Shown one piece after another: positions 46,691 to 51,801 of a stretch of DNA of 64,000 bases. Numbering within the stretch: position 1 is the first letter of the stretch; each line of letters begins with the position of its first letter. Origin of the DNA: Sphagnum compactum. Lineage: Eukaryota. The stretch spans positions 18,528,213 through 18,592,212 of the forward strand of contig OZ234493.1 of assembly GCA_965153455.1 (NCBI GenBank). Reading direction: 5' to 3'. The position numbers were made by a program, and so were the translations under genes. The notes beneath the pieces were generated by a model. The model worked only from the letters and a program-made list of their open reading frames with translations. It did no database searches and had not been told where the DNA came from.

Positions 46691-48054
46691 ATTTCATGAT
46701 GCGCGGTTCTACCCTAGTACATAGCCAGTCCAAATAAGACAACTAGTTTTCTTTAGTAAATTAGGTGTTTCGGTGCTGTGGTTGGGTGTTCCCCTCGCAT
46801 TGCTGTGTTTTGCTCTCTCTTTCTCCAATGGATTTAACCATTTGTGCCAAAACAAAACAAGACTACAAATTACAAGCCTTAAAATACGAGTCAACAGTAT
46901 TTCATCTTCTCTCAAAATCCCATCCCCCACACTAACAACTACATATTAGTCCTTGTGCACAAGAGGGCACAACAAAACTCAGCAAATTCATTCACAATCT
47001 GCTGATGCTTTCTTCCAAACAACACAACAAAACAATCCACATAATTGCATATCACGACAGAAAGGAGTACATCTGTTTGAAGGACTAACAGCAAGAAAAC
47101 GCCCCCTCTCCTTCCCAAAACACCCAACTTTCACCCAATCAAGTTGTCATACACCACATACCCACAACACACATCTTGCACATGACACCCAAGTCTTACA
47201 AAACACCAACCTCACAAGGACATCCAAAGAGCTTCACATAATCAGATTAGGTAACTGACACTATGGCAATCATCATTTACTAAAATCCAAAAAGAACTCC
47301 CAAATCCTTCTGAGTTATCCTGAATAACAGGACATTATTGTACCACAAGGTCATTCAAGAGAAACAAATACTAAAATCTTTATTTTGCACAAAGTGTTTT
47401 TGTGATACACAGAGGGCTGGAGCTCAATGAGCTCTCAAGGGTAAATTACAGGGGGCATGTAAAAGGTTGGGGAAGAAGAAAATTACATAAAGTTTACAGG
47501 GGATGGTCACAATATCTGTACATGACTAATTGCCGTAAAAAGATGGGAACTAAGAAACTCAAATTCTCTCTTAAGATGCAAAACTCTCAAAGATTTTGGC
47601 TATGCAACAACTGTTAAATGGCAGTGTTGCTCCAGCTAGTTGCCTTGTCTAGCCGCACTCCTCACTCTTTCTCGCTTGCTCTCTCTACGCTGCTCCGTAA
47701 TGTGTACAGGGGTTGTGAATGGAGAAGACTCTTACATAAATAACAAGCTGTCCTCTTCAACAACTTATAGTCAGCTTCACCATAAGAATGTAACAAACTT
47801 TTCGATTGGCTCCCAGCAGATATTGTCAATCTCTCAAAATCAGTACAAATCCCGTTTCTAAGATTTACCTCTCTGCTGTTCACCATCCAAGCCATCCAGT
47901 CAAACTGGGATGTGCTTCCATGCTCCCTAGCTTCCAGGCTCCCTCCAGACAAGAAGGTATCAAATGGACCACCACAAGATACCACCATCCAAGTACTGTC
48001 TTCAATGGAGTCTACCCTGCAAATGTTGCAGGGGTACTACTCATTACTCCCCGA

Positions 48055-48930
48055 CTATGCAAAGGCAGAGACACGACAGCATGAATCAGATCCAGATGAA
48101 GCAAAACCTTCAATGCGCACCACTGGATTCGCCTTGTAAGATGAAGGTCCACAAGATGAGATCTGCTGTGACAGCACTGACTGAGCTCTTTGATGCAGGA
48201 ACTGAACATCATGTATCAGTGGATTGCCTGAGCGACTTGGGGGTGATCCACAAAAGTAAGGGGGTGAACATGCAAAACTGGATGTGTCATTATATCCTCC
48301 CTGCACCATGGACACAACCAAACATCAGTTCCAGATGTCGGATGCAAACACAAACAAAAATACAAAAAAACAAATGATCAAGAAATGTCATATTCCCAAT
48401 TAACAAATTGAAATGAAAAGAATACAACCTACCTTGCTCAGAAAAATGTCAAGAATTTCAAAACCAGCATCACCTTCACCTCGCATTGTTGAATGGCTGC
48501 ACAAAAATAGATATCAAAAGATAAGTATGGTGCAAGCATGTAAAAACTTCACACAGATAACACTGAGAACAAACTATACATGAGCAGCTTGAGAACAGGG
48601 TCACATAGAAAACTCCAAAATACTAAATGACTTCAACACAAGAAACTAAATCCCAAAGGATTTGTGTCAATTTTCAGAAAGCATATACATTATGGAGTTC
48701 AAAGATGGGCACCTTCGGCACCTGCGAGATGGTTTCATGAACTCTGTGGCAGGACCTGAGATGTTAGTTGCACGCCTGGGCTTTGGACATATCACTTCTT
48801 CTTCATGTCCTTCACCACGGTAACCTCCTCTCTGCCTCCTCCTTTCACTCATTTCTGGACGATTCTCCAAAGAGTTCCAGGGACCAGCAAATTGCTGGAC
48901 TCCAGAGAGATTTCTTGCACAGATCTCCAG
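48055..48930 (-). CDS. Uncharacterised conserved plant protein (ICPKPRR / ILDIFLSK / [16 protein letters not shown] / VRIEGF family); complement(join(48055..48300,48433..48496,48713..48930)); 175 aa from CUG 48930 or 149 aa from first AUG 48852
   Basis: Three exons join in frame through GT-AG introns (donors 48712 and 48432; acceptors 48497 and 48301) and carry the family motifs in order. From recall, this is the family of Arabidopsis At1g13390/At3g02555/At5g16110; this needs a search to confirm. The start codon is uncertain. Confidence 0.85.
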
Positions 48931-49798
48931 TTTGGCAGTTTTTGTTCACCAAGAACAATGAAGATGTTACTGTTGTCTCTTGGAGAACAAGACACTGTAC
49001 TGTACCACCAGCTTTACTCCTGCTTTACTGTTCTCCAGTGAAGTATTTACAAGTTCACTAGTGGAGCTTCAATGGGAGCTTGAAGAAACCAATAGTGAGC
49101 AAAGTATTTTGAAAAATTGTGCTACAAAACTGAGCTCAACATTTACAAGTGGCTCACATATGTACAGGATGTCCCTCAAGTCCTGCACAACACAACCCAT
49201 CCACATAACAATCAGTTAACTGAACACACATTGCAACACTGTGCAAAACACACTTCAAATGAATCATTTTCCTCACCACCTGAAACTTCAGGAACAAGTT
49301 TACAAAATAGCTAAGGCAGTCAAGATTTGATGGACATTAGACCAAGATCCACAGACCAGATCTGAAGCATATGACCTCAATGGGCTGCAAAGACATGAGA
49401 AGAGGAAATAAGTTTTGCAAGGGTGGACCATGCAGGTGAACTGGTTCCATAAACTGTCAACAAGGGTGACATATATCCCTTGAACACACCCTGTGGATTT
49501 TACATTTCTCTGAAGAAGCGTGATCTTATCTGAATCTGAGCCCAGATCAGAAGACCAGCAAACATCCTATTCTCCACAAGAACAGGGACACAACAAGCAA
49601 ACTGGTTGCACCAGCACCAGAATCCATTCCACAGCCAGCTTAAAATCTTGGTGCTGCTAGAGTAGGACTCATCTCAGTGGTGGTACAGTGTTTTTATCAG
49701 ACACTGTATCCAGTCTGGTGAAAACTTATGGAAGTGTACACACAAAAAACAGACTGCAACTAGGTTGAACCCATACAGCAAAAAGCTCATGCAATACC

Positions 49799-50029
49799 TC
49801 AGGCCTTCAACACAGGATTGAAAACTCTGAAGGTCCAGATGTTGAACATCAAACCTGACAGGCAACCACATGGGAGAACTGAATGCAAACAGTCCTTTCC
49901 AACCACGGGTAAACCAACCAAGACAATAGTACCGAAAGAGCAGTCAACTACGAATGCAAGAAACGTCAACAAGCTCTCTCCACACACTGGAGATAGCTCA
50001 GAAATGGCCTTATACTCAATAACGGCCAA
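49799..50029 (-). CDS. Candidate peptide uORF (76 codons from UUG; 16 codons from internal AUG 49849) in the 5' leader of the gene above
   Basis: Open frame LAVIEYKAISELSPVCGESLL...VDCSFG...MFNIWTFRVFNPVLKA*. The UUG has A at -3 and G at +4. The TGA lies 1 nt before a strong donor (GAG|GTATTG, 49797) of a leader intron whose acceptor is at 49079. Confidence 0.5.
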   Translation of the reverse strand: MAVIEYKAISELSPVCGESLLTFLAFVVDCSFGTIVLVGLPVVGKDCLHSVLPCGCLSGLMFNIWTFRVFNPVLKA

Positions 50030-51619
50030 AGTTCAAGGCAGTCGAAATGGATGACAGATTGCCAATGAAAAGAGCCGAGCTCCGACCCAGACGAGAACCA
50101 CCACCCCCTCTTCAGGGAGCAAACAAGCCTCAAGTGACACAACGCTGCAGACAGAGGACCTTACAGAAGCCTTTGGAACAGTTTGCTTATGTCTTCCTCC
50201 AAGACAGCAACGATGGCGTTACGAGAGCAAGCTATTGACGACACGACGACAGGGACCAATCAGGATGTTTGAAACCTTCTCGAGTCGCAGCAGCAGGCAA
50301 GGTAGAACAGCTACCACAAGATCAGAAAAAGGAAAAATTTTGATAACTTGGGAGGAGTACAAGAGAAACAAACATTCGCAGAGACTGGCAGAAATCCATA
50401 TAACTGACTACGGGAAGGAACAGATGTGTAGACAGATCCCAGAACACTGTTTTCGATTAGAAGAAACAGTGAACAAGTCACACACACAAAACAAGAGAAA
50501 CAGCCGACCAGAAACCCGCTAAAAATAGGGCAAGAGAGGGGAGACAAACAGTAGCAGAAGAAAGCAGATGCATCATTATCGTCGCGCAGACATGATAATC
50601 ACATACAAAACAGACACTCAGAGCTTCACAGAATGCGACAAAACCTAAGAAGACGTTCTTCACGACATCAGACATCTTCTCACAAAAACTCTACACTAAA
50701 CACACGGTCGGAACCAAGCCGCTTTTCACAGATGCAAAGGCGAACATACTGAGAGAGGAGTAGCGTGCGCCATACTACGCACAATCAGACTGAATACAAG
50801 TAGTATGAGAGGCAACTCAAGAAAACAGATCTCAACCAAGGCGCGAGGTGGTACTCTCCCTCGGGCATCACACAAGAAAAAATGAACAAAAGGCGCTCTG
50901 CTTCTAAGAGAAAACAAACGACTAAGGAGAGTAAAGAACCAACAGCAGGACTGACAGTCTATTGTCCAAAACAGAACCACAAGCCTCTCGCGCATCACGA
51001 CATCAGGAAGGAATGAAAACGGCCGCTCTAATTCTCAAAGAGAAAAACAACACCAGAAACAAAACTCCTACTCGCTCAGGAGAGCGAAAGAAGAAGCAGC
51101 AACAGGAAGGACTGAAGGTCTATGTCCAAAACAAACAAACAGACAGACGCGGAACAGAAACATAAGCCTCCAACGCGTCACGACATCAGGAAGCAATAAA
51201 ACCAAGGCCCTCGGATTCTCTCAAGGAGGAAATAAAAACAATACCAGAGAAGCCTACCGGCTAAGAAGAAAGACGAAAGGGAAGGAAAGAAGCTGCAGCA
51301 GGAAGAGGACTGACGGCTATGTTAAAAAAATACAGATGTGCTCGCTGTCCGTGACCTTCCAAAGCTCCCGCTTTCAAAGCAAATAGCAGAAGCAGAGATG
51401 CAAAACCTTGAGAAGAGAAGAAGAAGAAGAGAAAACATAAATCTTGTGTTGTGTGAAGAAAGCATACCAGGCTCGAGAACTGCGAAGGCAGTCCCGCGGA
51501 GACGAGGACCAAATAGGCAGCAGCAGCAGCAACAACAACTGAGTTAGAACATGACGATGAGATCTGCCGGGACAAAAGAGAAAAGGCGCAAGCAAAGCGC
51601 TCTTGTGCTACTGCGACAG

Positions 51620-51801
51620 AAGAGAGAGAGAATCAGAGAGAGAGAGAGAGAGAGAGTGGAAGAGCTGCTGCAATGGAGAACACGGAGAAAGGAAAAACGG
51701 AAATGAGACAGGGCGCCAGTCTAAATAGCCAAAGACAAAGCCTGATTAGGAACCTGATTAGTAGTAAGCATGATTAGTAAAGTGATTAGGAACCTGATTA
51801 G
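51620..51801 (-). promoter_or_regulatory. Putative core promoter and TSS region of the minus-strand gene: (CT)n leader tract, TATA-like TATTTAG (51721-51727), five CTAATCA boxes
   Basis: (GA)n at about 51620-51655 on +, CTAAATA at 51721, and TGATTAG at 51743, 51755, 51771, 51783 and 51795. Confidence 0.55.

Follow-up and report, generated by a model that had tools for sequence, protein, structure and literature searches.

Conserved in-frame regions upstream of annotated AUG codons have been used to infer non-AUG translation starts in human genes (PMC3105428), and the same inference from conservation has been made for Arabidopsis and eudicots, including the CUG of FCA (PMC6380273). For such non-AUG extensions in maize, rice and soybean, proteogenomic work published in 2026 reports "a lack of evolutionary conservation" (PMC13096810). 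Neither "moss" nor "Physcomitrella" occurs in the available portions of PMC6380273 and PMC13096810. The gene described here lies on the minus strand of a 64,000-nucleotide (nt) stretch of the genome of the moss Sphagnum compactum; this whole stretch is called the window below, and all coordinates are positions in it. We consider it likely that the gene gives rise to a conserved, CUG-initiated proteoform of 175 amino acids (aa), probably alongside a 149-aa form that starts at AUG and is reached by leaky scanning.

The moss gene resembles the 5' extended main open reading frames (ORFs) described in the parts of PMC6380273 and PMC3105428 at hand, in which a stop-closed, AUG-free in-frame region under purifying selection is headed by a conserved near-cognate codon followed by G; for such genes, Arabidopsis FCA among them, leaky scanning to the AUG and hence two proteoforms are expected. 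Unlike the Arabidopsis and eudicot set, as far as the available text of PMC6380273 goes, it belongs to another gene family and to the moss lineage, and it has sister genes that carry AUG at the same position. Several of the Arabidopsis cases come with ribosome data in that text, whereas the moss case is known from sequence and RNA sequencing (RNA-seq) alone. With the maize, rice and soybean extensions, as presented in the portions of PMC13096810 at hand, it shares a near-cognate start, CUG being among the commonest, and the relevance of the Kozak positions -3 and +4; it differs from them in its conservation across Sphagnum and a second moss and in its homology to vascular-plant N-termini that start with AUG. 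The putative CUG start is, in these terms, a conserved non-AUG N-terminal extension, a known phenomenon with a new family member in moss. No published CUG start was found in its family, which carries the motifs xCPKPRR and VRIEGF; the supplementary tables of PMC6380273 and PMC13096810 might list a member.

The elements around the proposed start, read on the minus strand, are as follows.

48946..48948, minus strand: closing in-frame TGA, 5 codons 5' of the CTG (from the sequence)
48928..48930, minus strand: proposed CUG start, GCC AAA CUG GAG (found in 16 of 16 DNA copies and aligned to the start Met of homologues)
48853..48927, minus strand: N-terminal extension, the 25 codons after the CTG (codon counts against a second moss are given below)
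48850..48852, minus strand: first AUG, the annotated start in public Sphagnum models and that of the 149-aa form

By sequence and translation, the main ATG (48852-48850) is preceded in frame by the TGA at 48948-48946, the next stop upstream, and between the two stands ACA AAA ACT GCC AAA CTG GAG ATC TGT..., in which the CTG at 48930-48928 has A at -3 and G at +4. The extension comprises 26 codons, from the CTG through the codon preceding the ATG, with residue 1 read as L or M. A preliminary description of the locus had placed the probable start of the full-length protein at this CUG, and the coordinates, CTG context and 26-codon translation that it gave all match the minus-strand sequence. Only three in-frame near-cognate codons follow the TGA in the window; the CTG comes first among them and is the only near-cognate candidate with both A or G at -3 and G at +4. 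The chance of a 31-codon open frame, (61/64)^31, is about 0.23, and such a frame with one well-placed CTG is, taken alone, not beyond chance; the case for the CUG start is made because of the comparative data, namely the CTG in all 16 copies and a coding-type substitution pattern.

Relatives' DNA was obtained from metagenome contigs scanned with an N-terminal alignment (A1), by which 15 loci were confirmed of 578 pattern matches; with the window they make up the 16 DNA copies.

L001-L005: the window's paralogue type, 100-96% aa identity; L001 is a spliced transcript
L006-L010: second Sphagnum paralogue, 91% aa identity; L008 is a transcript
L011-L015: a second moss, 72% aa identity; L011, L013 and L014 have the first coding intron spliced out, L012 is genomic

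All 16 carry the CTG in the context AA(A/G) CTG GA, with A at -3 and G at +4. An in-frame stop lies 5, 39, 19 or 46 codons upstream of it with no ATG between, and the main AUG is preceded in every copy by 78 nt that lack an AUG in any frame. The extension is 26 codons long in the Sphagnum copies and 25 in the second moss. Stops or frameshifts in close relatives, which the preliminary description had named as evidence to look for against its proposal, are absent: the extension is intact in 16 of 16 copies, with one 3-nt indel, the sole length difference inside it, that adds or removes a single codon (TGT).

Nei-Gojobori counts were made over the 25 codons following the CTG. Synonymous and nonsynonymous differences are given as numbers (Sd, Nd) or as proportions (pS, pN), and the binomial P is the chance of that many synonymous changes under neutrality.

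Window and L011 (second moss), extension: Sd 12, Nd 8, pS 0.74, pN 0.14, binomial P 3e-4
Window and L011, next 44 annotated codons: pS 0.75, pN 0.16
Window and L012 (second moss), extension: pS 0.73, pN 0.18, binomial P 1e-3
Second Sphagnum paralogue and L011, extension: pS 0.67, pN 0.13, binomial P 6e-4
Window and second Sphagnum paralogue, extension: Sd 4, Nd 2, binomial P 0.025

Against the second moss, the in-frame pN/pS of the extension is 0.19-0.25 (P 3e-4 to 1e-3), and the codon-level constraint that the preliminary description had proposed to look for is the same as in the annotated exon. Read in its other two frames, the extension gives pN/pS of 1.4-3.1 in this comparison; between the Sphagnum paralogues, where only six positions differ, those frames give 0.60 and 1.39. 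Judged by these counts, the extension evolves as coding sequence, under purifying selection as a protein and in that frame only.

An alternative account would have translation start solely at AUG 48852, the 78 nt being untranslated leader that looks conserved either as the remnant of an ATG start lost not long ago or as a regulatory element acting at the nucleotide level. The public gene models do begin at AUG, and the two Sphagnum paralogues are alike upstream of the CTG too (72-76% identity when gapped columns are ignored, the gaps measuring 21, 1 and 1), so that close comparisons alone are weak. Against the second moss, pS is near saturation while pN stays at 0.14; the differences fall 4/2/14 at codon positions 1/2/3, one Ser of the extension is kept as TCT in one and AGT in the other, the sole indel is 3 nt long, and the other two frames lack such a pattern. 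A relic would not stay open and constrained over such divergence, and conservation sets in abruptly at the CTG. Start at the AUG only is accordingly regarded as very unlikely.

The 5' edge of the conserved region can be placed closely. Window and second moss are 76% identical from CTG to ATG, where a single 3-nt gap occurs; in the 100 alignment columns preceding the CTG, identity is 43% and the gap runs measure 6, 2, 5 and 1. In the extension the two Sphagnum paralogues are 93% identical and ungapped, and 7-9 nt before the CTG they differ by a 1-nt indel. All three groups share a GGTGA, which stands 20, 21 or 19 nt from the CTG. The drop in identity and the frame-breaking indels upstream therefore indicate that constraint begins at the CTG or within two to three codons of it.

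In another reading, the extension would be translated from a different near-cognate codon, for example AUC/AUU at 48924-48922 or, elsewhere, an upstream GUG, and the CUG would be a conserved Leu codon. ATC or ATT stands at codon +2 with G at -3 in all 16 copies, an in-frame GTG precedes the CTG by 6 codons in the second moss, and selection on the protein could retain a Leu codon. Upstream candidates fare poorly in the window, where the TGA lies 5 codons off and no near-cognate codon stands between it and the CTG, and the varying GGTGA spacing shows the frame upstream of the CTG not to be kept between paralogues. Only the CTG combines A at -3 with G at +4; AAA or AAG precedes it and GAN follows it in the 16 DNA copies, matching residues are seen in the 11 homologous proteins with L at this position (below), and the AUG of other homologues falls exactly where the CTG stands. 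Use of another near-cognate codon is judged improbable.

The last coding exon matched Sphagnum proteins at E values of 1e-46 to 1e-41, Physcomitrium down to 1e-29 and angiosperms down to 1e-5, the matches being moss, liverwort, lycophyte, gymnosperm and angiosperm proteins of 143-273 aa. A word search with exon 1 gave 5 proteins only, and a profile search of representatives gave 18; two of the profile matches (P0077, P0082), apparently unrelated and repetitive, were left aside. Neither exon searched matched a Pfam family; a sub-threshold match to the Pfam domain LRRCT (E 0.043) was disregarded. The window protein shares the blocks xCPKPRR, FE(I/L)LDI, GSPPSRxxNPL and VRIEGF with P0037 of Melia and more than 800 angiosperm proteins, and the C, P, P and R of CPKPRR are invariant in the 34 rows of the family alignment (A4). 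By these blocks, shared along the whole protein, the gene is a member of a small land-plant family without a Pfam model.

In A4, the column of the CTG holds M in 21 rows, L in 11 and no residue in 2, the latter being gymnosperm proteins (P0028, P0030) that begin further downstream. The M rows include, among lycophytes, Selaginella P0078 (MEICARNL) and Diphasiastrum P0023 (MEIYARNL) and P0079; Macleaya P0033 (MEICARR); P0074, P0075, P0076 and P0086 (MDTCVRNL or MDSCVRNL); three angiosperm proteins of the MNxC..QQ type; and ten moss proteins of a clade beginning MDFTRN or MEFTRN. The angiosperm N-terminus given in the preliminary description (MNxCxxQQNAF...EEM before VCPKPRR) matches P0037, P0039 and P0044, and its suggestion that the extension resembles homologue N-termini agrees with the position of the CTG in the start-Met column. 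In six of the M rows (P0008, P0012, P0017, P0018, P0106, P0086) the M is internal to a longer called ORF and must therefore be a true ATG. The L rows comprise, in Sphagnum, the window and the second (P0060) and third (P0071) paralogues; in four or more groups of other mosses, the second moss (P0066), P0070, the Ceratodon-like P0094 and P0101, and the further moss proteins P0067, P0068 and P0011; and, outside the mosses, Selaginella P0029. K precedes the L and D or E follows it in all 11, which implies A at -3 and G at +4 at the nucleotide level.

P0029, from Selaginella moellendorffii, has K-L-D at the moss CUG column and its annotated Met 21 codons before that, and its paralogue P0078 starts at the column. 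The same switch could have happened independently in P0029, or its model could reach too far upstream. For the second Sphagnum paralogue, the models of different Sphagnum species (P0003/P0064, P0063, P0065 and P0059/P0062) are 198, 160, 160 and 149 aa long; four N-termini for one paralogue suggest that annotation pipelines struggle where no AUG lies ahead of the conserved region.

RNA-seq evidence on the mRNA consists of one raw poly-A read set (X22) and contigs of three other runs, mapped to 47500-51500 at 90% likeness. First mates of X22 map to the plus strand, as fits RNA from the minus strand. The transcript features, from 5' to 3', are these.

51468..51500, minus strand: 3' end of a first, non-coding exon that extends past 51500 (42 joint reads; depth 14 in the bin 51386-51500)
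49183..51467, minus strand: intron in the 5' untranslated region (5'UTR), GT..AG, 2285 nt (42 reads from 27 starts, X22)
48713..49182, minus strand: second exon, with leader, in-frame stop, CTG, extension, AUG and the first 140 nt of the annotated coding sequence (RNA-seq)
49154..49159, minus strand: start-stop upstream ORF (uORF), ATG TGA (sequence; also in L001)
49122..49142, minus strand: 6-codon uORF, ATG TTG AGC TCA GTT TTG TAG (sequence; also in L001)
48497..48712, minus strand: intron (66 reads, main joint)
48433..48496, minus strand: third exon, 64 nt (RNA-seq joints; agrees with P0002/P0061)
48301..48432, minus strand: intron (78 reads)
48055..48300, minus strand: last coding exon, GGYND...VRIEGF...SAFA, ending in the stop TAG at 48057-48055 (sequence, RNA-seq)

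RNA depth is 0 over 49242-51385, within the 5'UTR intron, and the 3'UTR reaches at least 47500. No splice joint was reported within 49182-48713 at the threshold of 3 reads, with a depth of 77-86 across 48706-49107. Since the joints lie only at 49182/51468, 48713/48496 and 48433/48300, the TGA at 48948 and the CTG are part of the mature mRNA. The transcript contigs L001, L008 and L014 carry CTG at the start position, and 5' of it they stay collinear with genomic contigs over 252, 237 and 224 nt. L001, of the window's type, matches the genomic L002 over all 252 nt and ends at the position of the window's exon boundary; L008 and L014 diverge from the genomic contigs beyond their collinear parts, showing the 5'UTR intron to sit at a common position.

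These data bear on the further idea that an in-frame AUG is supplied by an unsampled alternative transcript, through another promoter or acceptor, as the 198-aa models P0003/P0064 imply. In those models a predicted exon further 5' (MFKVIHLMLTCWCY) is spliced to an AG some 25 nt before the CTG; the annotations of the second paralogue disagree (149, 160, 160 and 198 aa), and a single raw-read RNA set was examined. The window reads TTCATTG where the second paralogue has TCCAGTG, so that the acceptor is absent, and in copies of the window's type any acceptor would need to fall in the 15 nt between TGA and CTG. No joint is seen inside 49182-48713 at 3 or more reads with a depth of about 80, and L008, the transcript contig of the second paralogue, does not use that acceptor: it stays collinear with the genome over 237 nt 5' of the CTG and has an in-frame stop 39 codons upstream. 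The RNA-seq joints together with the three transcript contigs therefore exclude a spliced-in AUG exon in the transcripts sampled, and we think it extremely unlikely that an alternative transcript accounts for the extension.

The two uORF ATGs in the leader of the second exon, with stops 1 and 6 codons on, are found again in L001, the sole locus of the same type checked, and the ATG of the uORF at 49142-49122 is the last in any frame ahead of the main ATG. None of the 16 copies has an ATG in any frame from a point at -171 to -212, depending on the copy, up to the main ATG; in the window the ATG-free stretch measures 287 nt, a length equalled in 94 of 20000 shuffles. In L008, of the second Sphagnum paralogue, a comparable short uORF lies at about -190 and there is no start-stop uORF.

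Under the proposed mechanism, ribosomes would scan from the cap across a leader holding only very short uORFs and would resume scanning after these through about 210 nt without an AUG. A fraction would initiate at AAA CUG G (48930), with the CUG decoded by initiator Met-tRNA as is usual for near-cognate starts, and produce the 175-aa protein; those passing the CUG would cross 78 nt without an AUG and start at AUG 48852, giving the 149-aa protein. We infer initiation at the CUG, the initiating amino acid and the making of both proteoforms from the evidence above: transcript structure, conservation, constraint and homology support the non-AUG initiation of the full-length protein that the preliminary description had put forward, and the initiation step itself is proposed. 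All 11 L-type rows of A4 keep the Met of the downstream AUG, against 9 of 21 M-type rows; the rows are not independent events, and the contrast is at most a hint that CUG-type genes need a second start.

Several observations weigh against the interpretation favoured here. Every public Sphagnum model of the window's paralogue, P0002 of S. fallax and P0061 of S. magellanicum, is 149 aa long and uses the AUG. CUG starts are usually weaker than AUG starts, and the 149-aa form may be the major product. The DNA comparison covers two Sphagnum paralogue types and one other moss; further moss groups are represented by protein calls only, whose first residue is unreliable. For Logan proteins this is evident from P0006, whose initial "M" is GTG in L011, and from the versions of the same proteins in IMG, which begin with V or L. 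Three L-type proteins (P0070, P0101, P0011) begin, in protein calls only, with an M 7-12 codons upstream of the L. In P0084, a third-paralogue protein of Sphagnum, the frame is open from an upstream in-frame M, placed by tblastn at about window leader position 49155, within the leader equivalent of the second exon, and this copy may use an AUG start with a longer extension. No variant at 48928-48930 appears among the 40 of 224 read differences listed, which is weak evidence. RNA structure 3' of the CUG is not significant (z = -1.18, 26 of 200 shuffles as good), and the consensus fold has 21 pairs, 2 of them kept through two-sided changes in 1-2 sequences, with a covariation term of -0.39 kcal/mol.

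Two minor points belong with these. The upstream part of P0084 looks non-coding, being Trp-rich and not conserved in frame with the other paralogues. A hairpin CCAGCA...UGCUGG about 32 nt downstream of the CUG is invariant but proves no structure favouring it; it was set aside.

A maximum-likelihood tree was built from 39 chosen rows, fragments and read-through ORFs excluded, with all rows trimmed to 6 residues before xCPKPRR; N-terminal annotation therefore cannot affect it. The three Sphagnum paralogues form one clade (97/93) and all other moss proteins a second (88/95), which holds both L-type groups and the AUG-type MDFTRN clade (100/100). The tree was rooted at the midpoint for drawing only and does not fix the direction of the change between AUG and CUG; either order would require that the CUG survived the duplications behind the Sphagnum paralogues and persisted in at least one moss lineage outside Sphagnum. 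The divergence of Sphagnum from the remaining mosses is one of the oldest within the group, and the near-saturated pS between window and second moss agrees with so deep a divergence. A history in which the CUG was fixed before this split and kept since in one lineage of the family, with the moss-specific MDFTRN/MEFTRN clade later returning to AUG and with control exerted through the ratio of two proteoforms, is possible, and we offer it tentatively as less likely than not to hold in full. The contrast in the downstream Met suggests that CUG-type genes may depend on two proteoforms whose ratio is set by the stringency of start-codon selection; if so, mosses would have a built-in translational control of a CORG1-like growth regulator.

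The name CORG1 enters by way of a label. Several family members, P0037 among them, are labelled "translocase subunit seca". Arabidopsis AT1G13390 (CORG1) may belong to the window gene's family, a possibility supported only by the odd label that they share. No Arabidopsis protein is among the best 120 of the 847 family matches. CORG1 is reported to repress growth in the cold and is said to bear an annotation of this type (PMC9585020).

Annotation pipelines call AUG starts only, and the public models of Sphagnum, and apparently those of its Physcomitrium and Ceratodon counterparts, are without the conserved 25-26-residue N-terminus of the vascular-plant homologues; the annotations of several moss genomes probably truncate the true N-terminus of this protein. 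One codon position that is AUG in some members and CUG in others, within a plant group that can be transformed in the laboratory, amounts to a natural experiment by which near-cognate initiation and its control become directly testable in bryophytes. What sets the locus apart is the depth of conservation within mosses and the presence of AUG-type sisters at the same codon; it would be a counter-example to the general lack of conservation reported for plant non-AUG extensions, as stated in the available part of PMC13096810.

Some minor features of the transcript remain to be described. As the first exon continues beyond 51500, the transcription start lies outside the region to which RNA-seq reads were mapped. 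It is probably near a microsatellite, (AG)18 / (CT)18 at 51621-51656, in or just 5' of the first exon; ATG TTC TAA stands at 51552-51544 on the minus strand, if that part is transcribed. Besides the main donor at 48713 there is a minor one 9 nt further 5' (exon end 48722; 7 reads against 66), use of which would drop three residues (RCR). At 48969 the window has an extra leader base relative to 46 of 46 X22 reads, the X1 and X18 contigs and loci L001-L005, the cause being a difference between strains or a minor error in the assembly; its place is 5' of the TGA at 48948, and the frame of the extension is unaffected. At 48091, 48139, 48278, 48892 and 48953, a second letter is found in 12-36% of X22 reads; the reads with it carry 2-11 further differences, which suggests that they come from a diverged second copy, a paralogue or second subgenome mapped at 90%, rather than from editing.

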